Shown piece by piece: positions 3,951 to 19,632 of a stretch of DNA of 64,000 bases. The stretch covers positions 1,088 to 65,087 of the forward strand of contig NJEG01000018.1 in assembly GCA_002254565.1 (NCBI GenBank), written 5' to 3'. Made by a program: the position numbers and the translations under genes. The notes under the pieces are model-generated. The model was not told the origin of the DNA, searched no databases, and saw only the letters and a program-made list of their open reading frames with translations. Positions within the stretch are counted from its first letter, which is position 1. Every line of letters starts with the position of its first letter. The stretch comes from Candidatus Altiarchaeales archaeon ex4484_2. GTDB lineage: Archaea > Altiarchaeota > Altiarchaeia > IMC4 > QMZM01.

Positions 3951-3974
3951 ACAATAATAGGTGTTTTTGTTTAC

Positions 3975-4580
3975 TTAAATGTTTACCAGGTATGATGAAA
4001 AAAAGAGGGTGCCCACGAGCAACACCATCATAAGATAGACTGGAAGGCTCCATTTTTTTATACCTAGACCGTCGAACGGTGATACGGGTATCAGGTTGAA
4101 TAAACCAATCCAGGTGTTTATCCGGAATCCAAGAACTGCTGTCAAATCGATAAGAGGCGGTTTAGGGAAAGGCATCAGATATAGCATTAGGAAAGCTAAC
4201 GCAAGGAATAGATTCATCAACGGGCCCATCAGCGATATCTTCCCGTGTTGTTCCCTTAAGATTCTTCTCCCATGCAGGTGCACCGCTCCCGGCGCTACCA
4301 GAATGAATCCCGTAAAAGATATTAGTATTGCGAAAAAAAGACCTTGATAGTTTGCCCTAAATACTGCACCTAAACCGTATCTTTGTGCCAGATACTTGTG
4401 ACCCAGCTCGTGGAGCACGAACCCGAGCCCTACAGCTACAATGGATACGGGAAATGCTATCAGGAAAAACGAGAAGTCGTTGTTTGCATAAAGTATCGCA
4501 AAGGCTATGGACAGGATAATCCATGCCGTGAAGAGCTCCCATAACTCTTTAGGGGATATGGTGAATCTTTTGTGGTTCAT
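3975..4580 (-). CDS. site-2 protease family (peptidase M50) membrane metalloprotease
   Basis: HELGHKY (HExxH) within a TM helix and a downstream FNLIPVSPFDG motif. The protein is polytopic. Confidence 0.8.
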   Translation of the reverse strand: MNHKRFTISPKELWELFTAWIILSIAFAILYANNDFSFFLIAFPVSIVAVGLGFVLHELGHKYLAQRYGLGAVFRANYQGLFFAILISFTGFILVAPGAVHLHGRRILREQHGKISLMGPLMNLFLALAFLMLYLMPFPKPPLIDLTAVLGFRINTWIGLFNLIPVSPFDGLGIKKWSLPVYLMMVLLVGTLFFSSYLVNI

Positions 4581-4641
4581 TTTATAGTACTAGATTATAA
4601 AACTGTTGTATTTTTAAAGGATTAATGTATTAGTATTATAT

Positions 4642-4656
4642 TTATGAAATTCATAA
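4642..4656. promoter_or_regulatory. perfect 7-1-7 palindrome TTATGAA-A-TTCATAA in the divergent promoter region upstream of the wHTH regulator/ABC operon (candidate operator)
   Basis: Read directly from the sequence. It lies 27 nt upstream of the ATG at 4683. Confidence 0.4.
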
Positions 4657-4682
4657 TTTTCATAATAAACTAAAAGATTAAA

Positions 4683-5192
4683 ATGGAGGCTATTGAAGAG
4701 GAATTCGCAGAATTCTTCAAATTACTTGCCAAGACCTACGGCATGGGGGACCTACAGGCAACGGTACTCAGCGTCCTCTACCTGGAGCCTAATGAAGTGG
4801 CTATGGAAGAAATAGCAAAAAGAACAGGCTACAGCCTAGCATCCATATCCAACACCATGAAGATGCTTGAGGGTGCAGGCGTCGTGCGCAGGGTTAAGAA
4901 GCCAGGAACAAACAAGGTCTTCTTTTACATGGAAAAGGACTTAATAAAGCTTAACCTCCAGAAAATCAAAGCAGCATACGAGAGCATCATAAATCCAGGA
5001 AAAGAGATGCTCCCCAAGATAATAGAGAAATATGGTGGTAAAGTAGGGGATAGAAAATCCAGGGAGAAACTGCGCATAATAGAAAACTACTACCATCAGA
5101 TGATACAATTAGATAAACTGCTAAGGCATATGTCCAAGAAACTGGAGCGAATGTCAGCGGAAAACAGAATATTTAACAAAAAAATACCATAA
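4683..5192 (+). CDS. winged-helix transcriptional regulator (GbsR/MarR-like)
   Basis: wHTH-like segment EEIAKRTGYSLASISNTMKMLEGAGVVRRV. It is the first gene of the co-oriented ABC transporter operon. Confidence 0.6.
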   Translation: MEAIEEEFAEFFKLLAKTYGMGDLQATVLSVLYLEPNEVAMEEIAKRTGYSLASISNTMKMLEGAGVVRRVKKPGTNKVFFYMEKDLIKLNLQKIKAAYESIINPGKEMLPKIIEKYGGKVGDRKSREKLRIIENYYHQMIQLDKLLRHMSKKLERMSAENRIFNKKIP

Positions 5193-5208
5193 AGATTGGA
5201 CAAAAAAA

Positions 5209-5949
5209 ATGCCTGAAGAAAACCTCAGGGAGCCGATAATCGAGCTCGTGGATGTCTGGAAAATATATCAGATGGGTGAAGTCCAGGTGAAGGCACTGAG
5301 GGGGTTGAGCCTGGACATATACCCTCAGGAGTTCGTGGCTGTAATGGGCCCCTCCGGTTCAGGTAAATCAACACTCATGAACATGATAGGTTGCCTTGAT
5401 GTGCCCACGAAAGGGAAGGTCTACCTCGAAAACAGGGACATATCCGAGTTACATGAAAGCGATTTAGCGCAGATTAGAGGGCAGATTATCGGTTTCGTGT
5501 TCCAGACATTCAACCTGATGCCGGGTTTAACAGCCCTAGAAAACGTGATGCTGCCCATGACATTTCAGGGAATGGATAAGAGAGATAGGGAAAAAAGAGG
5601 TAAAATGCTTTTAACCAGGATGGGTTTGGGGGATCGGATGGACCACAAGCCAACTGAATTATCCGGAGGGCAGCAGCAGAGGGTGGCTATTGCAAGGTCA
5701 TTAGCCAACGACCCCGATGTCATATTAGCCGATGAGCCAACAGGTAACCTGGACTCCAAAACAGGGAATGAGGTCATGGACATGCTCACCCAGCTACACA
5801 GGGAGGAAGGTAAAACCATTGTTATGGTCACACACGACCAGAGCCTCTCAACATATGTGGAAAGAATCATCCAGATAATGGATGGTAAAACCACTGAAAG
5901 CTTAAACCACAATTACAATAATGGAGGAATCAAAGATGAAAAAATATAA
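5209..5949 (+). CDS. ABC transporter ATP-binding protein (MacB/LolD-like)
   Basis: Walker A GPSGSGKST, signature LSGGQQQR, Walker B ILADEPT. Confidence 0.9.
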   Translation: MPEENLREPIIELVDVWKIYQMGEVQVKALRGLSLDIYPQEFVAVMGPSGSGKSTLMNMIGCLDVPTKGKVYLENRDISELHESDLAQIRGQIIGFVFQTFNLMPGLTALENVMLPMTFQGMDKRDREKRGKMLLTRMGLGDRMDHKPTELSGGQQQRVAIARSLANDPDVILADEPTGNLDSKTGNEVMDMLTQLHREEGKTIVMVTHDQSLSTYVERIIQIMDGKTTESLNHNYNNGGIKDEKI

Positions 5950-7252
5950 AATATGGGCTTTTATATGCATGAGTTTTTTGTTGTTGAACACCGTGATGGC
6001 TGATGTGAGAGTTGACTCCTACTACATGGACGACTACTATATTGAGGCAGGTGATGAGGTATCATTATACTTCAAGTTACACCGCGCCCCAGTTAGCTCA
6101 CTTGTAGGCCTGCAGGAGAAGGTCACCTACGGAGCGGGAGACGTAAAGATTATACAGTCAGAGTCACTGGAGGACTATTATATAGCAAGGATTACACCAG
6201 ACAGCGAGATAGCAGAGCAATACGTTCTCATGAGTAACAGCCAAAAGGAGATAGGACACCTGTCCGTGGGAGAGAACTGGGCATCCAAGTTTGAAATCAA
6301 GATAGCAGAGAATACCCCAGATGCAATCTACAAAATGATGTTCAGGGTATACAAGACAGACTCGGAGTATAAAAACGAGGAAGTGATTCTCCAGAAACCT
6401 TTTGAGATAATGGTCCGGGGAACTCCACAGATAGACATTGACGCAGAGAACAGCATAGGTATCGGCTCAACAGGGAATATAGAATTGACAGTATACAATA
6501 AGGGAGGGGGTGTAGCGAGAGACGTTAAAGTGGATTTAGAACTGAGTGCGCCATTTACCCCAGTAGGCTCCTCTATGAAATATGTGGGATCTATTGATGC
6601 ACACCAATCAGAGAATCTCTCTTTCATGGTTTCGGTGTCCACCACAGCGGATGTGAAAACCCACAACATACCTGTTACCGTAACATATAAAGACGATAAC
6701 GGAACACCAGCCACGGTGTCCACGAACTTTGGTGTCCAGATAGACTCCAAGCCAGAGCTGGCTTTCGGACTAGACCAAGTGGATGAATTAGCTCCTGGAG
6801 TGACAGGGAATATAATCCTGAGCATATCCAATGAGGGCTTCGTGGATGCCAAGTTCCTGAAGTTCACCTTGGAGGAAAGCCCAGATTATGAGGTTCTCTC
6901 AATCAATGAAATCTATATCGGAAACCTTGACTCGGATGACATAGAGACTGATGAGTTCACCATAAGGGTGAAAGACAACGTGAGCAAGACAGTTATTCCA
7001 TTAAATGTTAGGTTGACATACAAGGGTGAAGGAAGCGACACCAGCTATACCAAACAGGGCACGGTGGATATAAACATTAAGTCGAAACGCGTGTATGCAG
7101 AGAAAACACGGGGTAATGGAACAACCAACACCGCTGTTATGGCATTGATAGCCATACCAGCCGTCTTTGTTGGGCTGCTCGTGATATGGTTTGTCTACAA
7201 GGTTTTCGGCTTGGTTACCAGCTACATAAACAGGAGGCTGTTTGCGAGATAA
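5936..7252 (+). CDS. exported CARDB/COG1361-like beta-rich protein with C-terminal TM anchor
   Basis: Signal peptide MKKYKIWAFICMSFLLLNTVMA. Repeated strands such as GNIELTVYNKGGGVARDVKV and GNIILSISNEGFVDAKF. C-terminal TM AVMALIAIPAVFVGLLVIWFV. The gene is embedded in the ABC operon. Confidence 0.6.
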   Translation: MKKYKIWAFICMSFLLLNTVMADVRVDSYYMDDYYIEAGDEVSLYFKLHRAPVSSLVGLQEKVTYGAGDVKIIQSESLEDYYIARITPDSEIAEQYVLMSNSQKEIGHLSVGENWASKFEIKIAENTPDAIYKMMFRVYKTDSEYKNEEVILQKPFEIMVRGTPQIDIDAENSIGIGSTGNIELTVYNKGGGVARDVKVDLELSAPFTPVGSSMKYVGSIDAHQSENLSFMVSVSTTADVKTHNIPVTVTYKDDNGTPATVSTNFGVQIDSKPELAFGLDQVDELAPGVTGNIILSISNEGFVDAKFLKFTLEESPDYEVLSINEIYIGNLDSDDIETDEFTIRVKDNVSKTVIPLNVRLTYKGEGSDTSYTKQGTVDINIKSKRVYAEKTRGNGTTNTAVMALIAIPAVFVGLLVIWFVYKVFGLVTSYINRRLFAR

Positions 7253-7268
7253 GATTTTTCAGGGAGAA

Positions 7269-8489
7269 ATGATTGGGGATTACTTCAGGCTGGCAGTTGA
7301 TGGAATAAAGCAGAGAAAGCTTAGGACATGGCTTACCATGATGGGGGTGTTTGTCGGAATCATTGCTGTAGTCTCCCTCATCTCCCTGGGCCAGGGTCTC
7401 CAGAAGCTCATAGATGACCAGTTCAAGGCGGTGGGGGGAGACGTTTTGATCGTAGTACCCGGGGGGAAGGGATCGTTTATGGCAGGGGGGTCGGGATCAG
7501 ACATTATCTCTGCGAAACTCCATCAAAGCGACCTGGATGTCATAAAGAAGGTGAAAGGCATCGATGAAGCCGTGGGAATATTCCGCTCAACAGGAACACT
7601 GGAGGTATATGATAAAAAAAAGAGTATCCCGGTCTTTGGTTTGCCAACAGACTTGAAATCACAGAAAAGCCTGAGTAAAATAGATCTATACAGGGTGGAT
7701 GACGGCAGATACATAAAACAGGGCAGTAGATATGAGGCACAGATAGGGGTTGAAACATGCAGTGGACTGGATAAGAAACCCGGTGTCGGAGACAAGATAG
7801 AGCTGGAGGGACATGTGTTCCATATCGTGGGAATGAACATGAAGACAGGCAACCCATTCCATGACGCAAAGGTAACAATCCCGATTGAAACAGGACAAAA
7901 AATCTTCAATAAAACAGACGAGTATTCACTTATTACGGTGCGGATTCAGAAGGGGTTTGATATAGATACAGTAGGTGAGAGGATTGAGGAGATGTTGAGG
8001 AAACACAGGGATGTTTCGGAGGGAGAGGAAGACTTCACAGTCCAAACCCCTCAAAACATCGTAGAGGTGTTTAAGGACATAGTCAACATGGTCACATTGG
8101 TTCTGTCAGGTATTGCCGGGATCTCCCTGATAGTCGGGGGGGTGGGGATTATGACTACCATGTATACCTCGGTTCTTGAGCGAACAAGACAGATAGGGAT
8201 AATGAAGGCTGTGGGTGCAAGAAACTCCGACATATTATTGATGTTTGTTATAGAGGCCGGATTACTTGGCCTGACCGGGGGAGTGATCGGCGTCGTACTT
8301 GGTTTAGGTATGAGTAAAGTAGGCGAGTATTTCGCCAGGATGTATATAGAGGACTTCAGTATATACGTGTCCTTAGAACTAGTAGTTGGCGCGCTTATGT
8401 TTTCATTCATCGTCGGATGCATATCAGGGTATCTGCCGGCACGCCAGGCATCAAAAATGCATCCAGTGGATGCCTTGAGGTACAGGTAA
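7269..8489 (+). CDS. ABC transporter permease, FtsX/MacB family
   Basis: N-terminal TM, large extracytoplasmic loop, C-terminal FtsX block (GIMKAVGARNSDIL...PARQASKMHPVDALRY). Start taken at ATG 7269 with GGGAG upstream. Confidence 0.85.
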   Translation: MIGDYFRLAVDGIKQRKLRTWLTMMGVFVGIIAVVSLISLGQGLQKLIDDQFKAVGGDVLIVVPGGKGSFMAGGSGSDIISAKLHQSDLDVIKKVKGIDEAVGIFRSTGTLEVYDKKKSIPVFGLPTDLKSQKSLSKIDLYRVDDGRYIKQGSRYEAQIGVETCSGLDKKPGVGDKIELEGHVFHIVGMNMKTGNPFHDAKVTIPIETGQKIFNKTDEYSLITVRIQKGFDIDTVGERIEEMLRKHRDVSEGEEDFTVQTPQNIVEVFKDIVNMVTLVLSGIAGISLIVGGVGIMTTMYTSVLERTRQIGIMKAVGARNSDILLMFVIEAGLLGLTGGVIGVVLGLGMSKVGEYFARMYIEDFSIYVSLELVVGALMFSFIVGCISGYLPARQASKMHPVDALRYR

Positions 8490-8490
8490 G

Positions 8491-9705
8491 ATGATAGAGG
8501 ATTTTTTCGCTATCTCGATAAGGAATATATGGAACAAGGGAGTCAGGAGCTGGCTGACCATGATAGGGATCTTCATAGGGATAGCAGCCATCGTCTCATT
8601 GATGTCGCTGGGGGAGGGGCTGCAGAATGCCATGGACGAGCAGTTTGAATTACTTGGGTATAACATAATCTATGTTACGCCGGGGAGTTCATTAGTTTCG
8701 ATGGGAACCGGCACTGCAAAGCTTGACGATTACGACCTAAAAATAATTAAAAGAATCAGGGGGGTTGATCTTGCAGGCGGATTAATAACTAAACTAGCTA
8801 AGGTAAAGTTTAAGGATGAAACAGCATATATCCTGGTTTCAGGTGTGGATCCGAGGAGTACACAGGAAATACTCTTTGACAACACAGGCATTGAAATCCT
8901 GAAGGGACAGAAGAAATTCAGTGAAAGCGACAGATACAAGGCCTTCGTTGGATACGAACTCTGGGCAGGTAATGTCTTTGACAAACCGGTGGGTGTTGGA
9001 GACAGAATCACCGTGAATGATAAGAGATTCCAGGTTGTCGGCGAAATAAGCAGGATAGGCAACAGCCAGGATGACCTGAGTGTCTATATCCCCCAGGAGA
9101 CAATAAAAGACATTTTCGGGGTGGAGGATGAGTATATGTTGGTAATGGCGAGGGCTAAGCCCAACTACGATGTAGAGGATGTTGCGGAAGACATAAAGAA
9201 AGCCCTTAGAAAAGACCGCGGCCTTGATGAGGGAGACGAAGACTTTGGGGTGCAGACAATGAAGCAGATGAAGGATTCCGTCGGAATCGTACTGGATGGC
9301 GTGCAGGCGGTTGTTATAGGCATATCCCTTATCTCACTCTTCGTAGGTGGCATAGGGATAATGAACACAATGTATACCTCTGTTTTGGAGAAGACGCAGG
9401 AAATCGGGGTGATGAAGGCGATCGGTGCCAGGAACTCGGATATATCGCTTTTGTTTATGATTGAATCAGGCACTATAGGACTGGTTGGGGGAGTAATCGG
9501 GTGCCTGATTGGGGCAGGACTCAGTAAGGGGGTTGAATATATCGCAGTCGTTGAACTGGATCAGACCATGATTAAGGCAAGCATAACACCTGAACTAATC
9601 ATTGGCGCACTAGCCTTCTCCTTCATCGTCGGATGCATATCGGGTGTTCTCCCAGCTAGACAGGCAGCGCAGCTTAAGCCGGTGGACGCACTGAGATATG
9701 AGTGA
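8491..9705 (+). CDS. ABC transporter permease, FtsX/MacB family (second paralogue)
   Basis: Same architecture as the preceding gene (GVMKAIGARNSDISL...PARQAAQLKPVDALRY). Confidence 0.85.
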   Translation: MIEDFFAISIRNIWNKGVRSWLTMIGIFIGIAAIVSLMSLGEGLQNAMDEQFELLGYNIIYVTPGSSLVSMGTGTAKLDDYDLKIIKRIRGVDLAGGLITKLAKVKFKDETAYILVSGVDPRSTQEILFDNTGIEILKGQKKFSESDRYKAFVGYELWAGNVFDKPVGVGDRITVNDKRFQVVGEISRIGNSQDDLSVYIPQETIKDIFGVEDEYMLVMARAKPNYDVEDVAEDIKKALRKDRGLDEGDEDFGVQTMKQMKDSVGIVLDGVQAVVIGISLISLFVGGIGIMNTMYTSVLEKTQEIGVMKAIGARNSDISLLFMIESGTIGLVGGVIGCLIGAGLSKGVEYIAVVELDQTMIKASITPELIIGALAFSFIVGCISGVLPARQAAQLKPVDALRYE

Positions 9706-9706
9706 A

Positions 9707-10448
9707 CTATCTTATGTAGGTGGGCTGATCCATGGAGAACTGCCTGTCCATGGCCTTCTTCTGCTCGTCTATCATCTTGCTGACCTTCCCCATCTGCTCC
9801 TCCGTCTAACATACTGGTTAACACATTAAGCACAACTTCAGCTGATTTAGCATCTATTATCTGACCGTGGGTTTCACCCATAAGGCAGACAGCATCCATA
9901 TCCCTGTCCATTCCCAAACCAAGGAGAAGGCCTGAGGCGCCGAATATTGCTCCAGAACCCCTGAAGACCACACCATGCTCGCTTAACTCATCCACAAGAA
10001 CCTTGCTTGTGGCAGCTCCATAAACCTTAGGGTTCTTGGTTATGCTGCCGGTGCCTAAACCCCCTAAAGTGAAAATCCTACCAACACCAAGTTCCTCCGC
10101 GATATCAAGTGTTTTATCGGAGATCCTGTACTGGCTCTCAGGGGTCAAACCCTGGAATCCTCCCAATAGAAGAATCATGTCGTTTTTCTTGTTCTTCCAG
10201 TAGTAGAGGCCCATATTAACTAATTCCACGGTATTATCTTTCTGGATGTTAACCTGAGGTGGGAGATAGATAGAATATATTTCAGCGAACTTTTTCCCAT
10301 CCAGCTCATCCAAAAGATGATCTCCTGCAAGCTTGCCCACCAAACCCACACCCGGTAGACCCTCAATTAACACGGGATTATCCAGTTCAGGCCTCTCCAG
10401 CATCTTAACCCTGATGTCATCCATTTTAATGTTATTATCACTTAACAT
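9707..10448 (-). CDS. PAC2-family (proteasome assembly chaperone-like, COG1938) protein with an apparent frameshift near 9800
   Basis: LIEGLPGVGLVGKLA...FTLGGLGTG... is PAC2-like. After ...VLTSMLD the track frame becomes implausible (GGADGEGQQDDRRAEEGHGQ) and overlaps the permease gene by 145 nt. A second frame gives TEEQMGKVSKMIDEQKKAMDRQFSMDQPTYIR* ending at 9707. Confidence 0.7.
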
Positions 10449-10472
10449 ATTATTGCAAGCAGGTGCTTATAA

Positions 10473-11348
10473 ATGACTCCCAAGCCGTTGGAGAGGTATT
10501 ACTCGATACTATCTGGGAAAGAAAAGGCCAGGTATTTGTTGTGCCCCAGCCTAGGGGAGAAGATAAAAGCCGCTAAAAGAATACTGGAAAAGTGTATTTT
10601 CTGCGAGAGAAGGTGTGGAGTAAACAGAATCAAAGGGGAGATGGGATACTGCAGAGTTCTGGAAGCAAGGATTTCCTCGGAGTTCATACACTTGGGGGAG
10701 GAATCACATCTCGTGCCCTCACACACAATCTTCTTTTCAGGGTGTACTTTCAGGTGCGTTTACTGCCAGAACTACGACATAAGCTATTACCCTGAGAGAG
10801 GAATCTACTTCAGGCCTGAACAGCTCGTGGAAAAAATCAACAACAGGAACGCTAGGAATGTGAACTGGGTTGGAGGAGACCCGACACCTAATCTCGCATA
10901 CATCCTTGGAGTACTAGGTTGCCTGGGGAAGAACATACCGCAGGTATGGAACAGCAACATGTATCTTAGCGAGGAATCACTGAATCTACTGGATGGCGTA
11001 ATCGACGTATACCTGACGGACTTCAAGTACGGGAACGACGGGTGCGCTGAAAGATTATCTGATGTCAAAGGATATATGAGAATCATAAAAAGAAACCACC
11101 TGATAGCCAATAAACAGTGCGAGATGATTATAAGACATCTTGTTCTGCCAAACCACCTGGAATGCTGTACCAAGCCGATACTGGACTGGATTAAGGAAAA
11201 CCTTGATAACGTCTACGTTAATGTCATGGGACAGTACAGGCCGGAGTACAGGGTCATGGAATATGCGGACATTAATAGGCGCCTGCACTATGGCGAGCTT
11301 GAGGAGGCGGTCAGCTACGCTGAGAATCTGGGGCTGGATTTAATCTAA
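10473..11348 (+). CDS. radical SAM protein (PflX/COG1313-like activase family)
   Basis: CxxxCxxC motif CTFRCVYC, plus an N-terminal Cys cluster CIFCERRCGVNR...YC. Confidence 0.85.
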   Translation: MTPKPLERYYSILSGKEKARYLLCPSLGEKIKAAKRILEKCIFCERRCGVNRIKGEMGYCRVLEARISSEFIHLGEESHLVPSHTIFFSGCTFRCVYCQNYDISYYPERGIYFRPEQLVEKINNRNARNVNWVGGDPTPNLAYILGVLGCLGKNIPQVWNSNMYLSEESLNLLDGVIDVYLTDFKYGNDGCAERLSDVKGYMRIIKRNHLIANKQCEMIIRHLVLPNHLECCTKPILDWIKENLDNVYVNVMGQYRPEYRVMEYADINRRLHYGELEEAVSYAENLGLDLI

Positions 11349-12191: not shown

Positions 12192-13523
12192 TCAGTAATA
12201 ATTAACCTCTCTACCCTTCTTTTCTTCATAGATTATACCCTCATCAAAAACAAGGTTGCCTCCGACAAAAGTCTTAACCGGCCAACCCTTCAGCGTCCTG
12301 CCAGCATAAGGGCTCCACCCACATTTAGTGAAAAGCTCCTCCTCCCTGACCACCTTCTCCCTATCCAGGTCAACAATAACCAAGTCAGCATCGAATCCCT
12401 TCTCTATTCTGCCCTTGTTTTTCACCCTGAAAACCCTGGCCGGATTCTCAGCAGTAATTTTTGCAATCAATTCAAGGGTTAACCTACTCTTATGTGTCTC
12501 ATTTAAGAGCAAAGGTAATGTTGTTTCCAGCTCAGGGAAACCAGCGCTCGCGGTGAAAACATCCCCCTCCTTGGATTCCCTCAAATGCGGAGCATGGTCT
12601 GAGGCAATCATATCTATTGTTCCATCAAATAAGCCCTCCCAGAGAGCGCCATTATCTACCTCAGACCTAAGAGGAGGGTTCACCCTACTGTAGGAGCCCA
12701 GCCTTCCCACATCATCCAGGCTGAGGAAGAGATGGTGGGGCGAGACCTCAGCAGTCAGTTGAGGGTCCTTGAACTTCCTTACCAGATTAACCTCCTCCAA
12801 AGTAGAGATATGAGCTACATGGAGCTTGTTTCCAGCAGACTTGGATAGATAAATCAATGAATTCAGGGATTCACTAGCACAGATATTACCTCTTGCTTTA
12901 GCATAAGTTAACGGACTAACATCCTCCCCTGACTCCTTAAGCGCGTTCATCCAGTAATCAATCATCACCTGGTTCTCGGCATGGACTGTGGAAATCAACT
13001 GCTTCTCTCCCAGTATCCTGAAATCCTCAAAGATTACTGCATCATTATCTATCAACAGACTACCTACAGTGGAACATGTGTAGAACTTCACTGAAGCAAT
13101 ACCCCCAAAGAGTTTCTTCAGTTCCTCCTGGTTGTCTGGTGTAGCAGCGAAATGGAAGCCGTAATCAACCAGAGACTTCCCTTTCACATTCTCCCTCTTC
13201 CTGGCCAGCTCCTCTATTGAGGTGGTTGGGGGTTGGGTATTGGGCATGTCGAATAACGTAGTGACGCCTCCCGCTACAGCAGCCTTGGAGCCTGTAACCC
13301 ACCCCTCCTTGGAGACCGCACCAGGCTCACGCATATGCACGTGCACGTCTATCATACCCGGTAGAATGTATTTTCCCCCAGCATCAACAACAGTATCAGC
13401 CTCAGGTAAGGCAGAGTCTTTAACTATATCCTTTATTTTACCAGCCCCTATAACAAGACCCGCATCAACAACCCCTTCAGGGAGGACCAGATGAGAATTT
13501 TTTATCACCAACTCAGCCATCAT
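12192..13523 (-). CDS. pyrC: dihydroorotase
   Basis: Amidohydrolase motifs DVHVHMREPG and ASDHAPH. 443 aa. Co-oriented with pyrK directly upstream. Confidence 0.85.
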   Translation of the reverse strand: MMAELVIKNSHLVLPEGVVDAGLVIGAGKIKDIVKDSALPEADTVVDAGGKYILPGMIDVHVHMREPGAVSKEGWVTGSKAAVAGGVTTLFDMPNTQPPTTSIEELARKRENVKGKSLVDYGFHFAATPDNQEELKKLFGGIASVKFYTCSTVGSLLIDNDAVIFEDFRILGEKQLISTVHAENQVMIDYWMNALKESGEDVSPLTYAKARGNICASESLNSLIYLSKSAGNKLHVAHISTLEEVNLVRKFKDPQLTAEVSPHHLFLSLDDVGRLGSYSRVNPPLRSEVDNGALWEGLFDGTIDMIASDHAPHLRESKEGDVFTASAGFPELETTLPLLLNETHKSRLTLELIAKITAENPARVFRVKNKGRIEKGFDADLVIVDLDREKVVREEELFTKCGWSPYAGRTLKGWPVKTFVGGNLVFDEGIIYEEKKGREVNYY

Positions 13524-13569
13524 GCTTAACTAAATAAAAAAAGAGAGTATATAAATCAAACTATATAGT

Positions 13570-14343
13570 CTATAGGTCAACCACCGCACCGGCTTTGTCT
13601 CTCCTGTATCGTCCGAACTCTGAATTCCTCAGCTGCCCTGCTTCAAAAACCGGGCCATCCCTGCAGACCATAAGACCCGAGTCATCTATGGAACAATGCC
13701 CGCAGACACCGATACTGCACTTTATATACCGCTCCAGGGTCAGCTGACAGAATATGTTTCTCTCCAAGGCGATATCCATCACCCTCTTCATCATAACCTC
13801 AGGCCCGCAGGTGCATATCTGGTCCACCCCCCCATCAACTAATTCCTCCAAGACATCGCATGTAGTTCCCTTCCGGCCGCAGCTGCCATCATCCGTGGTT
13901 AAATGGATTGTGGCCTCACCCTTTAGCCTCTTAAGTGGAACCAACGCCTCCCCTGTTTTTGCCCCGTGGATTACGGTAACTTCCCTATCCTCAGCTAAGG
14001 CTTCATCTATAAAAGGCAACAGTGGGGCGATTCCCACTCCGCCGGCAACAGCACATATGCTTTTACCCTTTAACTTGAAGTGCCCGTCCCCGTAGGGTCC
14101 CCTGAAACCAACCAGGTCCCCCTCCTCTAGGGTAAACATTTTCTCCGTGAAGGAACCAACTTTCCTAACCATTATCTTGACGTCTCCATCCAGTTTAGCG
14201 AAACCGAAGGGTTTCTCACCCTCTCCTGGAATCCATAACATACAGAACTGCCCAGGCCTCGCATCCACCCTCTTGTCTAAGGTGAACGTCTTAACTGTAG
14301 GATTCTCCATCCTAATCCCTGAAATCTCAACCATCTCAAGCAT
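13570..14343 (-). CDS. pyrK: dihydroorotate dehydrogenase electron-transfer subunit
   Basis: FNR-like fold (RPGQF, GGVGIAP) and C-terminal 2Fe-2S cluster CSIGVCGHCSID...VCRDGPVF. ATG 14343 lies 5 nt downstream of the GGTGAT SD core. Confidence 0.85.
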   Translation of the reverse strand: MLEMVEISGIRMENPTVKTFTLDKRVDARPGQFCMLWIPGEGEKPFGFAKLDGDVKIMVRKVGSFTEKMFTLEEGDLVGFRGPYGDGHFKLKGKSICAVAGGVGIAPLLPFIDEALAEDREVTVIHGAKTGEALVPLKRLKGEATIHLTTDDGSCGRKGTTCDVLEELVDGGVDQICTCGPEVMMKRVMDIALERNIFCQLTLERYIKCSIGVCGHCSIDDSGLMVCRDGPVFEAGQLRNSEFGRYRRDKAGAVVDL

Positions 14344-14345
14344 TC

Positions 14346-14464
14346 TCAATCACCCTCACCCATTCATGTGGTCTGATTTTATCGATGGTTTCATTCCTTC
14401 TCCATCATCTTCAAAAATTCCTGTCATTTTTGTCATCTTTGTCATAATTTATAGTTTATACCAT
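14346..14464. repeat. direct repeat copy A (119 bp): pyrK promoter/leader with 3 imperfect 9-bp units TGTCATYTT
   Basis: Aligned by eye to 17405-17550: 7 mismatches plus a 27-bp length difference caused by three extra 9-mers in the other copy. Confidence 0.85.
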
Positions 14465-14597
14465 ATTAATCTCGCCTTCCGCAGGCATTTTTTGTGCACC
14501 AGCCGGTGTCTATAGAATGTCCCGGTTCCTTTTTTTAACCGGTTTTTCACATACTGCGCATGTTTTAATATTCTCCATCTTCAATAAATGTGGTTAT

Positions 14598-14660
14598 TCA
14601 TTGGATTTCTTTTCTTTCTGTGAGGGATTTTTTGAATTCATTGATTCGGGATTCCTTCAT
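14598..14660 (-). pseudogene. 5' remnant of a third AlbA_2/Schlafen-like paralogue (MKESRINEFKKSLTERKEIQ*)
   Basis: The 20 codons match the MKESQTIEFKKSLAERKEI start of both full genes. Its ATG overlaps the TGA of the upstream paralogue (ATGA at 14657-14660). Confidence 0.6.
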
Positions 14661-15877
14661 TCTTTTGCGTAATCTTTTGCGTAATCTTTCTGCCTTTCGT
14701 TAAGCCCCAGCCTATGCAGATCCTCCAATACAGGAGGTAGTTTAAAAATGACAGCAAAAGAACCGGTGATATGCTCAAACTCCGGTTCAGGTATATTCCA
14801 CTCCTTGCATTGATCCATCATGTCCAGTGTTCCACTACCAACATCTTCGACATATTTCACCCAAAAGAGTTGTTTAAATAGCAGAGGATTTCTTGGAATT
14901 GAGCTGTGTTCCTTTTTCAAATCCTCTATGCTTATTTCTTTGGGTAGCGTTCCCGGACTCCAGATTTCAATTCTGTTATCGAAGATCCTCACCTGCACCT
15001 TGGATGGCGACCCATAATCTCTGTGTACAACAGCATTCACAATAGCCTCTCTTATCGCATCTGGCGGGTATTCATATCTCTCTTCCCTCTGAACCTTCTC
15101 GGGAACCAACCATATCGCCTTTCGTATATTTCGCAGAACAAAGTCTCTTGCATTATCGATCAGATCAAAAACGTTTCCCTCCAATGTCTGGAAGTCTATG
15201 TAGGGTTTAACGGGTTTGTTTCCAGAAAATCTGATACATTTCACCTCTGACTGCAAAAACATCGGCTCTTTACTGAAGAGTAGAACAGCAGCATTCGTCA
15301 GTTTCCCATTTCGGAGCAGCTTTAATTTCATCAATACTTCTTCAAGATGAGCCTCTTCAAGGATCTTTAATCCCCTCTGTTTTCGTGCTTCCTTCAGGAA
15401 CCATCTGACCTTCTCTTCATCGATATCCTCTAAAGTTGCTTCCTCACATATCTGGGAATCCCAGAGGAATTCTTTACCCTCAGAGAGAATCTGCCTCAGT
15501 TCATTCACATCGATCTTCTGGTTTGCCTTTCCAACCCTTTTAAACGCCACCGGAATTCTGTCTATCTTGACAAATACTGGTTTTACTTGGCTTTCTTTTA
15601 TCTCTACAACCAAAACAGATTTTTCTTTGATCTTCTTCACCTCAATAGAGGGATAGATTACGGGATTAGTATTCTGCTTAATCTCGTTACTCAGGTTCTC
15701 GATCTCTTTTCCCCTGATTTTTATTCCAACAATCTTCTTTACTGAACCGTCCTTGTTCTCGTCTATGCCAACGAATATCTCCCCTCCCTTGGAGTCTGCG
15801 AATGCTGAGATTGTTTCAAGGATTTCCTTCCTTTCAGCAAGAGATTTCTTGAATTCAATGGTTTGGGATTCTTTCAT
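14657..15877 (-). CDS. AlbA_2 (Schlafen-like) plus HATPase_c_4-like protein, COG2865 family, lacking the C-terminal HTH
   Basis: N-terminal ESQTIEFKKSLAERKEILETISAFADSKGGEIFVGIDE is AlbA_2-like. PPDAIREAIVNAVVHRDY is HATPase_c_4-like. The protein ends in a duplicated DYAKDYAKE encoded by a 12-bp tandem repeat. Confidence 0.75.
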   Translation of the reverse strand: MKESQTIEFKKSLAERKEILETISAFADSKGGEIFVGIDENKDGSVKKIVGIKIRGKEIENLSNEIKQNTNPVIYPSIEVKKIKEKSVLVVEIKESQVKPVFVKIDRIPVAFKRVGKANQKIDVNELRQILSEGKEFLWDSQICEEATLEDIDEEKVRWFLKEARKQRGLKILEEAHLEEVLMKLKLLRNGKLTNAAVLLFSKEPMFLQSEVKCIRFSGNKPVKPYIDFQTLEGNVFDLIDNARDFVLRNIRKAIWLVPEKVQREERYEYPPDAIREAIVNAVVHRDYGSPSKVQVRIFDNRIEIWSPGTLPKEISIEDLKKEHSSIPRNPLLFKQLFWVKYVEDVGSGTLDMMDQCKEWNIPEPEFEHITGSFAVIFKLPPVLEDLHRLGLNERQKDYAKDYAKE

Positions 15878-16008
15878 CTTTTAGCTTTTTTCAATCACCT
15901 TCACCCATTTATGATTTTTGATCTTTTCTATCTCTTTCTGGATTTTTGATTTCCTTGAATTTCATCTTTCCTCATGAATTGAATCGACGCATTTATTTTA
16001 CAGGGCTT

Positions 16009-16041
16009 CGTGCCATTTTCGTGCCATTTTCGTGCCATTTA
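16009..16041. repeat. 11-bp tandem repeat CGTGCCATTTT x3 abutting the stop codon of the 450-aa paralogue
   Basis: Read directly: units at 16009-16019, 16020-16030 and 16031-16041. The last unit contains the TAA on the minus strand. Confidence 0.8.
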
Positions 16042-17391
16042 TGTCAGTTCATAATATGTTTGCTTACTCTTTCCTTTTCTTTTGACTATCCCCTTTTTCA
16101 ATAGTCCTGTAAGATCTCTAAAAGCTGTTCTTTCAGAGCAACCAATTATTTTTACATATTCTGAACGAGTAATTTTTTTATGAATTTTTAAGTATCCTAT
16201 TGTCTTTTTTTGCCTCTTATTTAACTGCTCTAAAGTGTCTTCTGAGATCACATATTTCCTAAAGGTGATTACAAGACTCTTAGCAATTTCTTCAAATAAA
16301 GGTTCCAGAAGATCATGATCTAAGCATTCTCTTATGATTCTATTTGTTCCAGTTCCCCACTGCTCAATAAATCTTATCAAAAAGAAGCATTTTCCAATTA
16401 AAGGATTTCTCAGTATCGAATCGTGTTTTTTCTTCAGATCCTCTACAGTTAATGGTTCTGGTAGAGGTCCACAACCCCAGACCTCAATTCTATCGTCAAA
16501 GATCCTTACCTGAGTATTGCTTTGAATTTCATAGTTTCTATGACAAATGGCATTTGTTATTGCTTCTCTTATTGCCTCAATCGGATATTCCCATGTCTCG
16601 ACTCTTTCTGTTCCGACAATTTTTGCATGTAGTTTAATATGCTCTTTAACAAATTCAACTGCATCTTCCCTTTGGTCAATAATATTTCCTCCAAAGACTT
16701 TCATATCAATGAATTCCAGTGGTTCTGTTCCCTTAAATCTCGCACATCTGATCTCTGCCTGTAAAAAGGATCTTTGGGGGTTTTTACCAAATAGCAGGAT
16801 TGCAGCATTAGTAAGTTTTTTGTCTTTTATTAAATTTAGTCTTCTTAAAGCCTCCTCTACCGATATACTTGGATCAATCTCTAATCTTCTCTCGAACCTT
16901 GCCTTCCTTAAAAATTCCCTAACTGTCTTTTCATTAATATCCCTCAAGGTTGCTTCCTCACATATCTGGGAATCCCAGAGGAATTCCTTTCCCTCAGAGA
17001 TGATCCGCCTCAGTTCATTCACATCGATCTTCTGGTTTGTCCTTCCGACTCTCTTGAATGCTATTGGAATTTTATCAATTTTAGCAAACACAGGCTTTAA
17101 CTGGTTTTCTTTTACCTCAATAACCAAAACATCTTTCCCTTTAATCTTCTCCACCTCAATAGACGGAAATATCACTGGATCAGTATTTTGTTTAATCTCG
17201 TTACCTAAGTTTTCAATTTCCCTGCCTTTGATTTTAACTCCAACTACCTCTTTCATAGAACCGTCCTTGTTCTCGTCTATGCCAATGAATATCTGCCCTC
17301 CCTTGGAATTCGCAAACGCCGAAATCGTTTCAAGGATTTCCTTCCTTTCAGCAAGAGATTTCTTGAATTCAATGGTTTGGGATTCTTTCAT
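16039..17391 (-). CDS. AlbA_2 (Schlafen-like) plus HATPase_c_4-like plus C-terminal wHTH protein, COG2865 family
   Basis: About 80% aa identity to the neighbouring paralogue over the first 170 aa. EAIREAITNAICHRNY. C-terminal HTH-like KKITRSEYVKIIGCSERTAFRDLTGLLKKGIVKR. Confidence 0.8.
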   Translation of the reverse strand: MKESQTIEFKKSLAERKEILETISAFANSKGGQIFIGIDENKDGSMKEVVGVKIKGREIENLGNEIKQNTDPVIFPSIEVEKIKGKDVLVIEVKENQLKPVFAKIDKIPIAFKRVGRTNQKIDVNELRRIISEGKEFLWDSQICEEATLRDINEKTVREFLRKARFERRLEIDPSISVEEALRRLNLIKDKKLTNAAILLFGKNPQRSFLQAEIRCARFKGTEPLEFIDMKVFGGNIIDQREDAVEFVKEHIKLHAKIVGTERVETWEYPIEAIREAITNAICHRNYEIQSNTQVRIFDDRIEVWGCGPLPEPLTVEDLKKKHDSILRNPLIGKCFFLIRFIEQWGTGTNRIIRECLDHDLLEPLFEEIAKSLVITFRKYVISEDTLEQLNKRQKKTIGYLKIHKKITRSEYVKIIGCSERTAFRDLTGLLKKGIVKRKGKSKQTYYELT

Positions 17392-17404
17392 CTTTTAGCT
17401 TTTT

Positions 17405-17550
17405 TCAATCACCCTCACCCATCCGTGGGATTTGATTTTATCGACAGTTTCATTCCTTCTCCATCATCTTCAAAAATTCCTGTCATTTTTGTCATCTTTG
17501 TCATCTTTGTCATCTTTGTCATCTTTGTCATAATTTATAGTTTATACCAT
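17405..17550. repeat. direct repeat copy C (146 bp): duplicate of the pyrK leader with 6 imperfect 9-bp units (17481-17534)
   Basis: 94% identical to 14346-14464 outside the microsatellite. Lies upstream of the 450-aa paralogue. Confidence 0.85.
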
Positions 17551-17752
17551 CTACCTTAGCATCCTGTGCATATCTGGAAACCAGATTAAAGCCCTCGATA
17601 TAGAAATATCCGGAGACGATCTTTGCATACTCGGATTTACTTAACAGTTCCTTTAACACGCTCTCCAATCTCTGATGCTTATTGTCTGTGATATTGGTAT
17701 AGGGATTCTGGTCTGTGTTAGTTTTCCCGGAAATTTTCCCTGTATTTGTCAT
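17528..17752 (-). pseudogene. 74-aa fragment resembling the N-terminus of PLD-nuclease domain (helicase/restriction-associated) proteins
   Basis: LKELLSKSEYAKIVSGYFYIEGFNLVS resembles the first beta-alpha-beta of PLD-like domains. The frame stops where repeat copy C begins. It could instead be an intact small ORF. Confidence 0.3.
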
Positions 17753-17766
17753 TTTTTAGTAATCCC

Positions 17767-18678
17767 TCAACCATGTGCTCTGCCTATAATCTCTTCCAGG
17801 CGGGAGTATCCCTGCTCTTTCATGAAATCCCTTAATTCATCCGTTACCTCCCTGAATACATCAACGCCCCGGTGCCATACAGCGGTTCCTATACCAACAG
17901 CGGAGGCGCCTGCCATCAGCATCTCTACTGCATCTTCCCCCGATTCAATGCCACCAACCCCAATCACAGGTATTTCAACAACATCATAGATGTCATACAC
18001 ACACCTGACAGCCACAGGTTTGATGCAGGGACCAGAGAGGCCACCGAATTTATTCGACAAAACAGGCCTGCCTGAGACAACATCAATCTTCATCCCAGGA
18101 CCGAGGGTGTTTATTGCTGAGATAACGTCAGCTCCGTTTTTTTCCACCTCCAATGCGATGGCCTTGATGTCCACCACATTAGGTGTTAGTTTCACAATAA
18201 GAGGTAAATCTGTTGCATTCTTGACTGCCCGGGTTATCTTACCTGCCGTTTTGGCGCTGGAGCCGAAGGGTTTGCCGAACTCTCTCACATTAGGGCAGGA
18301 TATGTTAGCCTCCAGAAAGGCTGGCTCGGCCTTGGATAATAGCTCGGCCATGTAGCCGTACTCGGAGATGCTTTTGCCGTAGAAGCTTGCTATCACAGGA
18401 GCATCTACGGAGTCAACTGCCTTCTTAAGCTCCCCCATTGATTCCTCCGGATCGGGACATGAAAGACCTATAGCATTCAATAACCCGCAGTCCAGTTCCA
18501 CCACCACAGGGTTTTCATGCCCCCTCCTTTTCTGGGGGCCGATGGATTTAGTGATTACGGCAGCTGCACCAGATGCGGATGCTCTCTTAAGAGCTGATGC
18601 AGTGACCCCAAGGACTCCGGAAGCCAATACTGTGGGGTTGTTTAATCTGATGCCAGCTAACTCCGTTGAAACATCCAT
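17767..18678 (-). CDS. pyrD: dihydroorotate dehydrogenase catalytic subunit (class 1B)
   Basis: Motifs NAIGLSCPD, ISCPNV, GGLSGP, IGVGGI. 303 aa. Confidence 0.9.
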   Translation of the reverse strand: MDVSTELAGIRLNNPTVLASGVLGVTASALKRASASGAAAVITKSIGPQKRRGHENPVVVELDCGLLNAIGLSCPDPEESMGELKKAVDSVDAPVIASFYGKSISEYGYMAELLSKAEPAFLEANISCPNVREFGKPFGSSAKTAGKITRAVKNATDLPLIVKLTPNVVDIKAIALEVEKNGADVISAINTLGPGMKIDVVSGRPVLSNKFGGLSGPCIKPVAVRCVYDIYDVVEIPVIGVGGIESGEDAVEMLMAGASAVGIGTAVWHRGVDVFREVTDELRDFMKEQGYSRLEEIIGRAHG

Positions 18679-18714
18679 CCTTGATTTAATTATTCTCTTT
18701 CTTCAATAATAACT

Positions 18715-19632
18715 ATGAAACCAAGGATTCTCATCTCGGATAAGATACATGATAAGGCAATTGATGAGGCTAAGTTGTTTGCTGATGTTGACCTGAAATT
18801 CAATCTCACCCCCAAGGAGCTGGTAGATAAGATAAGAGATTATGACGCATTAATCATTCGCTCCGGGACCAAGGTCACCAGAGAGGTTATAGCTAACGCC
18901 GGGAAACTCAGGATTATTGGCAGGGCAGGGGTGGGGCTTGACAATATAGACCTTAAGGCAGCCGGAGAAAAAAATATTGAGGTTGTTAACTCCCCCGAGG
19001 CTTCAACCATTTCTGTAGCTGAATTAGCCGTTGGCTCGCTGATCGCATTGATGAGAAACATACACCACGGGCATTCATCCCTTAAAAAAGGCAGGTGGGA
19101 TAGAAGCAAGCTAACCGGGAACGAACTCTACGGTAAAAAAATAGGGATTATAGGATTCGGGAGAATCGGGAGGGAGGTAGCTGATCGGGCAAAAGCCTTC
19201 GGAATGGACGTGCTGGCATTCGACCCTAACATAACAGTAGAGGATGCGAGAGAAAACAACTGCGAGTACAGGGAGCTGGATGAATTAATAAAAGAGGCTG
19301 ACGTGCTCACATTACATGTGCCCTTAACAGAAAAAACCAGGGGCTTGATTGATACAGCAAAAATAGAAAGCATGAAAAAGGATGCTGTGATCATCAACGC
19401 AGCCAGAGGAGGTGTAGTTAATGAGGAAGACCTGTATGCAGCATTAAAGAAGGGCGTCATCAAGGGTGCAGCCATCGACGTCTTCGAGTCAGAGCCACCT
19501 GAGGGAAGCCCTCTATTGGAGCTGGACAACATAGTTCTGACACCCCACCTTGGAGCCAACACCGAAGAAGCCCAGATTAATGCCGGAGCAGTGGTGGTGG
19601 AGAAGATAAGAAATCACTTCAGGAACGCCTGA
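18715..19632 (+). CDS. D-isomer-specific 2-hydroxyacid dehydrogenase (short D-3-phosphoglycerate dehydrogenase-like)
   Basis: NAD fold GIIGFGRIGREVA; catalytic-region motifs NAARGGVV and TPHLGA. No ACT domain. Confidence 0.8.
   Translation: MKPRILISDKIHDKAIDEAKLFADVDLKFNLTPKELVDKIRDYDALIIRSGTKVTREVIANAGKLRIIGRAGVGLDNIDLKAAGEKNIEVVNSPEASTISVAELAVGSLIALMRNIHHGHSSLKKGRWDRSKLTGNELYGKKIGIIGFGRIGREVADRAKAFGMDVLAFDPNITVEDARENNCEYRELDELIKEADVLTLHVPLTEKTRGLIDTAKIESMKKDAVIINAARGGVVNEEDLYAALKKGVIKGAAIDVFESEPPEGSPLLELDNIVLTPHLGANTEEAQINAGAVVVEKIRNHFRNA

Follow-up and report, generated by a model that had tools for sequence, protein, structure and literature searches.

Two divergent Schlatpase genes in a strain-variable, candidate defense islet at the pyrD-pyrK junction of an Altiarchaeota lineage, and a tandem repeat at the gene ends of their subfamily

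Many prokaryotic Schlafen (SLFN) proteins combine the SLFN domain with a GHKL-type ATPase domain, a pair that has been named "Schlatpase" and that occurs in 58.6% of 103,533 SLFN proteins (bioRxiv 10.64898/2026.05.29.728809). Proteins with SLFN, GHKL and helix-turn-helix (HTH) domains were catalogued as "HisKinase-HTH" and make up 19.2% of 5,930 prokaryotic Schlafens in a survey that defined the catalytic motif as E-x4-(E/D)-x-K (PMC13056530). The sole mechanism worked out experimentally for the module is that of RzAgo from Runella zeae, an SLFN-prokaryotic Argonaute (SLFN-pAgo) protein with the same SLFN + GHKL supradomain, in which ATP-driven tetramerization is followed by tRNA cleavage. ATP-dependent oligomerization, tRNA cleavage and phage protection have been demonstrated for RzAgo and other Slfn fusions only. 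Here, we analyzed a stretch of 64,000 nucleotides of contig NJEG01000018.1 from Candidatus Altiarchaeales archaeon ex4484_2 (the window), in which two genes of this type, par1 and par2, lie in a 3,423-bp block (the islet) between the pyrimidine biosynthesis genes pyrD and pyrK.

As judged from their sequences, par1, par2 and their subfamily belong to the Schlatpase-HTH proteins, the commonest Schlafen architecture of prokaryotes. They have in common with the catalogued HisKinase-HTH proteins the domain order (PF04326, PF13749 and a short C-terminal HTH), a length of ~450 amino acids, conservation of the E-x4-(E/D)-x-K motif and of the GHKL N-box, and wide lateral transfer within a family that is often found near defense genes. 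Two aspects are different. The tandem repeats that we describe below at the 3' ends of these genes are unmentioned in both PMC13056530 and bioRxiv 10.64898/2026.05.29.728809, and here two divergent members, one of them with its HTH deleted, stand in tandem inside an archaeal pyrimidine operon. RzAgo differs in its sensor, which is an Argonaute core with RNA guides that forms guide-dependent filaments, whereas the window proteins have a winged HTH (wHTH) instead. A preliminary description of this DNA regarded the islet as functionally uncharacterized. This no longer holds for the domain pair, which was characterized in 2026 within SLFN-pAgo, or for the architecture, which has been catalogued, but it is still true of the stand-alone members, which have no demonstrated phenotype.

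We consider it likely that the islet is a small, strain-variable block of the defense type that was inserted into the ancestral pyrD-pyrK junction of one Altiarchaeota lineage and was remodeled by cassette recombination. The flanks are pyrD (dihydroorotate dehydrogenase, DHODH; 18678-17767), which matches TIGR01037 with 370.7 bits (cut-off 270) and PF01180 (3e-73), and pyrK (DHODH electron-transfer subunit; 14343-13570), which matches the NF000796 equivalog with 309.8 bits (cut-off 224). Together with pyrC (dihydroorotase; 13523-12192, TIGR00857, 362.8 bits), the co-transcribed neighbor of pyrK, they are co-oriented on the minus strand, as are all of the islet features described below. With the NCBIfam cut-offs passed and a gap of 3,423 bp (14344-17766), the earlier reading of an operon split by 3.4 kb is confirmed. 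It was also right about the AT-rich composition: the G+C content of the gap is 38.0%, against 50.4% in pyrD, 51.2% in pyrK and 45.5% in the whole window, and is the lowest among all 3.4-kb stretches of the window (mean 45.5%, standard deviation 2.1).

The genomes closest to the window are metagenome-assembled genomes (MAGs) of uncultured Altiarchaeota. Relatives of the locus were found by scanning metagenomes with PyrK, and their gene neighborhoods were compared. The shared synteny comprises serA-like, PolD small subunit, pyrD, pyrK, pyrC, orf141, VanZ-family and radical-SAM genes. Four contigs (L019, L021, L023 and L025) have an empty site, with pyrD and pyrK 5-20 nt apart. In L019 and L021 (~80% PyrD identity), the TAA of pyrD is followed by AGGAA and then by the ATG of pyrK, and in L023 and L025, which are further removed, pyrD likewise adjoins pyrK. 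A tight junction between the two genes is thus ancestral and the islet is a derived insertion, as the preliminary description had supposed. By this comparison of sequences, it arose in the lineage leading to the window and to contigs L008 and L009.

What lies in the junction varies among relatives. L005, from a co-occurring strain, encodes an identical PyrD protein, yet has ~2 kb of extra DNA directly after pyrD (L005 10913-12974), with an Mrr_cat remnant, small open reading frames (ORFs) and an AAA_14/DUF4143 ATPase that corresponds to the PADLOC candidate PDC-S01 (6e-97). After this extra segment comes a longer, 95-amino-acid version of a phospholipase D (PLD)-type nuclease remnant that is also present in the window. 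In L008 (PyrD 93%), a Schlatpase 3' end directly follows pyrD and is succeeded by the spacer that separates par1 from par2. L009 comes from a different species (PyrD 88%) and has the order pyrD, an intact 485-amino-acid PLDc_2 + Mrr_cat nuclease, one Schlatpase-HTH gene, the start fragment of a third copy, a zinc-ribbon ORF, a leader and pyrK. In other Altiarchaeota-like lineages, the junction has been hit independently. L010 and L024 carry a gene for a 627-amino-acid fusion of acetyl-CoA hydrolase/transferase and GNAT, the start of which overlaps the pyrD stop codon (L010 9859-11742, L024 1777-3657), and L022 holds ~1 kb of other, unrelated DNA (1854-2883). Empty in L019, L021, L023 and L025 and filled with other cargo in L005, L008, L009, L010/L024 and L022, the junction has the profile of a variable hot spot.

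In a comparison of the window with L009, par2 and the PLD remnant have a synonymous divergence (dS) of 0.074 and 0.106, respectively, whereas pyrD, pyrK and pyrC have values of 0.35-0.39. At the nucleotide level, par2 is 97.7% identical to its L009 copy (window 14689-15877 versus L009 12538-13726), and the flanking genes are 88-90% identical. The low dS of the islet relative to its flanks indicates that islet DNA passed from one lineage to the other long after their separation, and that recent lateral exchange between the window and L009, as far as can be read from these divergences, was confined to the islet.

The islet resembles defense islands and hot spots in its conserved housekeeping flanks, in being empty or differently filled in relatives, and in its AT-rich, partly decayed nuclease/ATPase cargo. 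It differs from them in being only 3.4 kb long, in having no integrase, tRNA gene or att site, in holding no validated defense system, and in cutting a translationally coupled gene pair, so that it must supply new expression signals for pyrK. No integrase, transposase or recombinase Pfam family was detected within 10 kb on either side of the islet, in agreement with the preliminary description, and a tRNA scan of the 64-kb window found no tRNA gene. The block has neither repeats at both borders, nor a recombinase, nor a tRNA target that would mark an integrated element. A search of viral contigs found no relatives of the Schlatpase alignment and gave no evidence for virus-borne genes.

The domain architecture that had been proposed for the two full-length proteins is borne out by Pfam matches well above threshold. 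par1 (17391-16039) encodes an intact Schlatpase-HTH protein of 450 amino acids that matches PF04326 (AlbA_2) with 84.6 bits (1e-23; gathering score 25.3) and PF13749 (HATPase_c_4) with 70.1 bits (1.7e-19; cut-off 26). For par2 (15877-14657), which encodes a 406-amino-acid Schlatpase without HTH, the same cut-offs are exceeded with 76.2 bits (4e-21) and 79.2 bits (2.4e-22), respectively. No NCBIfam model matches the islet proteins, whereas a PADLOC pAgo model matches over its SLFN-GHKL part (model positions 54-460, 3e-22). Both proteins begin with MKESQTIEFKK, which contains the motif residues E3, E8 and K10, and the E-x4-E-x-K nuclease motif is intact in both. E3, E8, K10, E276, N280, G346 and G348 are invariant in an alignment of 30 sequences (A2). 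From these residues, the window proteins are predicted to have nuclease and ATPase activity.

The C-terminal end of par1 has only a weak HTH_DeoR match (18 bits, below the cut-off of 21). In an AlphaFold2 model (predicted local distance difference test score 79), residues 392-449 form three helices and a wing, and residues ~390-450 match ArsR/MarR/AspA-type wHTH folds; on this model, the C-terminal domain is a short wHTH. The other fold matches are 3lmm, 2kyy (N-terminal domain) and human SLFN5/11/14. The best structural match is DIP2311 of Corynebacterium diphtheriae (3lmm; Foldseek E = 2e-23), which has the same multi-domain architecture, whereas 2kyy matches the N-terminal domain. Both are structural-genomics entries without assigned function, and the identity to 3lmm is ~19%. 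The HTH of par2 is present in L001 and L009, where the protein has 466 amino acids, and is deleted in the window. Relative to L001 and L004, window par2 has an in-frame deletion of 180 bp at 14689 that excises the HTH precisely (IKAINY...SGLR) and retains the KDYAKDYAKE tail. Repeat collapse was considered as the origin of this deletion and was rejected, given that the junction has only 1-2 nt of microhomology.

The preliminary description called par1 and par2 tandem paralogues, which, in the sense of a local duplication, is not supported. The two proteins are 56-58% identical to each other, and par1 is 58-78% identical to proteins of Woesearchaeota, Methanoperedenaceae, ANME-2, Thermoplasmatota, Aenigmarchaeota, Petrotogales, Syntrophomonadaceae and Patescibacteria. 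Because par1 is closer to homologues from other phyla than to par2, each gene represents its own lineage of a family that moves laterally. Higher similarity (83-84%) is limited to the first ~470 nt of the two genes, which suggests gene conversion at the 5' end.

The islet also contains gene remnants. An ORF of 74 amino acids next to pyrD (17752-17528) had been likened to the N-terminus of PLD-nuclease/helicase proteins. The PLD part of this assignment stands. The helicase part does not, since the segment 17745-17549 is 95% identical to L009 11094-11290, inside the intact 485-amino-acid ORF, which has PLDc_2 and Mrr_cat and no helicase part. The remnant is thus doubly truncated, both the true start and everything past codon ~80 having been lost. 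The 20-codon start fragment of a third Schlatpase gene (14660-14598, stop codon included) was correctly recognized: 15 of its 20 amino acids are identical to the paralogue starts (79% over 66 nt), and its ATG overlaps the par2 stop codon (ATGA). Its presence in L009 implies that it predates the split of the two species. Finally, a 44-amino-acid zinc-ribbon ORF (CxxC...C; 14578-14449) is frameshifted: it is intact in L009 (14011-14145), and tblastn splits the window copy into two frames.

Both paralogues end in short tandem repeats, and this feature extends to the entire subfamily. All 14 of the 14 intact subfamily genes examined, from archaea and bacteria and from eight or more lineages, have 2.4-3.9 tandem copies of a gene-specific unit of 10-12 nt (mostly 11 nt), with the first copy beginning at most 60 nt upstream and at most 6 nt downstream of the stop codon. 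The par1 stop codon runs straight into a perfect triple 11-nt direct repeat, AATGGCACGAA x3 (16040-16007). At the 3' end of par2, the 12-nt unit GATTACGCAAAA (14689-14661) is present 2.4 times in the window and three times in L001 and L009, and is translated into KDYAKDYAKE. The other subfamily genes have 2.8-3.9 near-perfect copies each. L033 has the par1 unit AATGGCACGAA in the same place (1414-1450), after a gene that is 78% identical. The units elsewhere are TGAAACGAAAG in L012 (9359-9393), TTATGCCAACT in L015 (9386-9419), ATTTCGGATAA in L034 (2069-2104), GTGAACGAAAA in L035 from Petrotogales (~4332-4361), TTAGCGGAAAT in L036 from Patescibacteria (4359-4394), GTGGCACGAAA in L037 from Thermoplasmatota (2626-2660), GGCTCACAAAG in L038 from Aenigmarchaeota (4360-4394) and TTGCGACGCAT, with four copies, in L039 from Methanoperedenaceae (4357-4399). 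The three genes of L018 (Woesearchaeota) have the units TGCGGTGCAAA (gene a), GTATCCGGAA (gene b) and TGCGTCCGATA (gene c), with 3' repeats at 5975-6009, 7609-7639 and 9343-9376, and L040 has a 3' repeat at ~2830-2870. A pseudogene on the Rhodothermus marinus plasmid pRMAR01, 37% identical, also has a 3' repeat.

When the 313 kb of DNA retrieved for this comparison were scanned with strict settings (a period of 10-12, no fewer than 2.7 copies and no more than one mismatch), 17 repeats were returned. All of them are at the 3' end of a Schlatpase gene or in stacks formed by the remains of such ends and by orphan repeats. The par1 and par2 units occur nowhere else in the 64-kb window. The positional association of the repeats with the gene ends of the subfamily is very strong. 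Searches of plasmids with tblastn found distant homologues only (<40% identity), and five of the six that were fetched have no 3' repeats, from which we conclude that the feature is limited to the par1/par2 subfamily. Literature on AlbA_2/HATPase_c_4, COG2865 and Schlafen in combination with HTH, direct repeats or operator yielded no description of 3' repeats, and the terms "direct repeat" and "tandem repeat" have no occurrence in bioRxiv 10.64898/2026.05.29.728809. As far as we could find, the triple repeat at the stop codon has not been described before.

The repeat unit tends to follow the predicted recognition helix of the HTH. par1 and protein P0002 have a common helix (GCSERTAFRD, residues 417-426 of par1) and an identical unit. 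P0057 is 59% identical overall and has the helix KVSPRTAFRY and a unit, GTGGCACGAAA, that is close to that of par1, whereas P0003, at 75% identity overall, has the helix NITDRTVLND and a quite different unit. Across all 14 genes, the similarity of units correlates with the identity of helices (Mantel test, r = 0.37, p = 0.003) and not with that of the SLFN-GHKL bodies (r = -0.11, p = 0.73). We regard the covariation of helix and unit as suggestive only.

Schlatpase-HTH genes were found in diverse settings. In L018, three of them stand in tandem (3392-10643), each preceded by an ORF of ~50 amino acids with a hydrophobic, signal-peptide-like N-terminus and several cysteines, and the array is bracketed by two DUF1016/YhcG (PD-(D/E)xK-type) genes. 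L035, L038 and L039 have single genes inside sugar-nucleotide, glycosyltransferase or epimerase clusters, and in L037 the gene lies beside a pilin gene and ribosomal protein genes. No integrase is near the gene in any of these four contigs. In L039 (4400-4691) and L018 (2430-2616 and 7680-7743), the 3' ends of Schlatpase genes in decay form stacks with orphan triple repeats, the units of which differ. One remnant in L018 carries the unit of the neighboring intact gene, and a remnant unit in L039, TTATGCCAACT, is that of the unrelated gene in L015. The stacks suggest repeated cassette replacement that left 3' ends behind.

These observations can be combined into the following working model. The functional cargo of the islet would be two Schlatpase(-HTH) proteins, each of a different sub-lineage, and everything else in the block (the PLD-Mrr remnant, the start fragment of a third Schlatpase and the frameshifted zinc-ribbon ORF) would be wreckage. 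By homology, ATP binding to the GHKL domain would drive oligomerization, which would bring the nuclease sites of the SLFN domains (E-x4-E-x-K) together as an active tRNase and shut down translation in an infected cell, a putative role in defense. The C-terminal wHTH would be the sensor or regulatory module. Each wHTH may bind the triple 11/12-nt repeat that marks the 3' end of the gene encoding it. The protein could in this way be tethered to its locus, be pre-assembled there or be autoregulated. Direct repeats spaced by one helical turn are typical for wHTH proteins that oligomerize on DNA. Such proteins include the excisionases or recombination directionality factors (RDFs) Apl and RdfS and the centromere-binding protein AspA. 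They resemble the window proteins in their wHTH fold, with AspA and ArsR/MarR being among the fold matches, and in the 11-bp spacing of the direct repeats that form the candidate site. They differ in that the window proteins lack a recombinase or partition ATPase partner, and the comparison is an analogy only. Tentatively, we propose that the triple 11-nt stop-codon repeat may be the cognate site of the gene's own wHTH, that HTH and site may form a tightly linked, swappable specificity module, and that oligomerization templated or restrained at the own locus may control when the nuclease becomes active. The HTH-repeat module might then do with DNA, by analogy, what the guide-RNA filament does in keeping SLFN-pAgo inactive.

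Several points weigh against this model, some concerning defense and others the repeats. PADLOC found no validated defense system in the islet and returned a candidate family or partial domains only: across the islets, these were partial-domain matches (pAgo and Aga), a weak ZacB match for the L009 nuclease and, in L005 only, PDC-S01. What stands of the original proposal of a defense-type, partly decayed islet is the type of cargo and its decay. Tested Slfn-HisKinase fusions gave no protection against a phage panel (PMC13056530), and phage defense has been demonstrated for no Schlatpase-HTH protein. The G+C content of the islet and its housekeeping surroundings in themselves point to no function. 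The 3' repeats are absent from homologues at 25-29% identity (Runella, Aliarcobacter, IncC and Pseudomonas plasmids, and Staphylococcus). The correlation between unit and helix drops to r = 0.22 (p = 0.04) without L033, a member of the closest pair, and to r = 0.18 (p = 0.08) without L033 and par1. The fixed position at the stop codon could equally mean a role at the RNA level or in recombination.

Given that COG2865 is annotated as "predicted transcriptional regulator", par1 and par2 could instead be ordinary transcription factors recruited for pyrK-pyrC or other neighbors, the islet being regulatory. The C-terminal wHTH with its candidate operators, the position of the genes immediately upstream of and co-oriented with pyr genes, and the occurrence of repeats and leader in front of the next gene in the array would all suit such a role. 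We nevertheless think it unlikely. The genes are absent from relatives that have the same pyr genes, vary between strains with identical PyrD, and have spread laterally across phyla at 58-78% identity, and their nuclease and ATPase motifs are strictly conserved. The 3' repeats stay with the gene whatever is downstream, be it an epimerase gene, a pilin gene on the opposite strand or the end of a contig, and window par2, which has no HTH, keeps an open reading frame.

About equally unlikely, in our estimate, is that a Schlatpase-HTH gene and its 3' triple repeat form a selfish, single-gene mobile cassette for which defense is secondary or absent. The wHTH would then bind the repeats as an excisionase binds its recombination sites, and the conserved 5' end (ATGAAAGAATCCCAA...) would be the landing pad. 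Such a cassette would account for the singletons between housekeeping genes with no integrase nearby, for the start fragments of a "next" copy after genes in the window, L009 and L033, and for the stacks of orphan 3' ends and triple repeats in L039 and L018, and wHTH RDFs bind direct repeats one helical turn apart. However, there is no recombinase in the protein or its neighborhood, the SLFN domains studied so far cut RNA and not DNA, and homologous recombination between conserved 5' ends explains the arrays and remnants equally well.

The direct repeats noted earlier in the islet bear on how it was assembled. They are R (14464-14346, 119 nt), directly upstream of pyrK, and R' (17550-17405, 146 nt), which adjoins the par1 ATG. 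Our own alignment reproduces exactly the reported seven mismatches and 27-nt difference, the latter corresponding to three extra 9-nt GATGACAAA units in R'. There are ~2.7 copies of this unit in R (14422-14445) and 5.7 in R' (17481-17531), and the array of L001 is at ~6640-6710. R and R' each contain TATA-like boxes, the variable 9-nt array and a GGTGA-rich core. In R, the boxes are of the TATAAA type and lie at the 5' end, and the core, GGGTGAGGGTGATTGA, resembles a ribosome-binding site. A third, partial leader copy lies just upstream of par2 (15931-15888, core 15891-15908), so that the 18-nt core occurs three times in the window against 0.15 occurrences expected by chance. In frame, the GATGACAAA array forms a short (MTK)n upstream ORF that ends in the leader core; a conserved (MTK)n...G peptide was considered and rejected, because the seven mismatches between R and R' cause five amino-acid changes. 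No Rfam family matches 13500-19000 at E ≤ 1 or the whole window at gathering scores, so the leader is not a known riboswitch or attenuator.

The leader recurs outside the locus. L033 is an unrelated contig of 2.9 kb that carries the 78%-identical par1 homologue and aligns colinearly, at 77% identity, with positions 17395-15862 of the window. What the two have in common is the gene, the AATGGCACGAA x3 repeat, a spacer, the leader core and the first codons of a next copy, which indicates that the leader belongs to Schlatpase cassettes and is not an insertion scar. Over their first ~90 nt, R and R' differ in nothing but how many 9-nt units they contain. All seven mismatches are confined to the final ~30 nt of R', a stretch with the sequence ATCAAATCCCA in R', as in the L033 leader, and ATCAGACCACA in R. 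This cluster of mismatches implies that R' is a recombinant of two cassette leaders. Compared with L009, codons ~80-485 of the PLD-Mrr gene have given way to a segment consisting of R', par1, spacer and leader. On the right, this segment joins par2 within the conserved 5' end; par1 and par2 are identical in their initial 66 nt and in the 14 nt upstream. R and R' are copies of the cassettes' own upstream leader, with R now probably also providing expression signals for pyrK-pyrC. Because coupling to pyrD was the ancestral state of the pyrK start, it is probably R that now supplies the pyrK ribosome-binding site (GGGTGAGGGTGATTGA), as its sequence suggests, and R perhaps serves as a promoter for pyrK-pyrC. 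Against the latter, transcription could simply read through from pyrD.

The preliminary description interpreted the repeats as the junctions of a Campbell-type event, in which circular foreign DNA with a pyrK leader recombined with the chromosomal leader. Two long repeats in the same orientation, 3 kb apart and enclosing AT-rich cargo, are what such an event would leave, and without an integrase homologous recombination is needed. The empty site with a single leader copy that this interpretation called for was not found: the empty sites hold no leader at all. L009 has one leader and is inserted all the same, with a par2 that is 97.7% identical. R' is not at the islet edge, since it lies ~216 nt inside the pyrD-side border with the PLD remnant between it and pyrD. 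par1 stands upstream of the older par2, although a crossover at R would have put it between par2 and pyrK, and the mismatches cluster at the 3' end of R', where they match the L033 cassette leader. Taken together, these data make a Campbell-type capture very improbable. The leader was also considered as the ancestral pyrK 5' region and rejected as such, being absent from L019, L021, L023, L025 and L010.

We compared the window with metagenome contigs in the ENA that carry exactly the same PyrD and PyrK. L001/L004 (a 128-kb scaffold) and L002 (an 18.8-kb contig), from separate assemblies, match the order and every junction at 100% identity. Only two indels separate the window from L001, both at short tandem repeats: the 9-nt array of R' is longer by two units in L001, and par2 of L001/L004 has the 180 bp that window par2 lacks. 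Several contigs break inside the 9-nt array of R' (L005, L006 and L007 end there, and L002 starts there), as is expected of samples that contain more than one variant. An artefact of metagenome assembly, be it a chimeric join or a collapse at repeats, might be invoked for these breaks and for the location of both indels, but it is scarcely credible because the separate assemblies reproduce order and junctions bar those two indels, and the sister species in L009 independently has the same backbone.

The window contains a second, distant PyrK-like gene (35% identity; 27619-28305, minus strand). In contig L004, its counterpart pairs with a GltD-like pyridine-nucleotide oxidoreductase, and it is probably part of a pair of the sulfide-dehydrogenase/ferredoxin-NADP reductase type rather than a second pyrK.

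Taken alone, the islet is one more small, variable, defense-type block in a poorly studied archaeal phylum and fairly ordinary, with an unusual site in that it breaks the translationally coupled pyrD-pyrK pair. Most worth following up is the conserved triple repeat at the stop codon. Of ~100,000 prokaryotic Schlafens, more than half are Schlatpase(-HTH) proteins (bioRxiv 10.64898/2026.05.29.728809), and a gene-specific triple 11-nt repeat beside the HTH-coding end offers a concrete candidate DNA ligand for a class whose stand-alone members have no known trigger, ligand or phenotype. The 3' repeat could also explain why native-promoter clones of the Schlatpase-HTH class have so far been silent.

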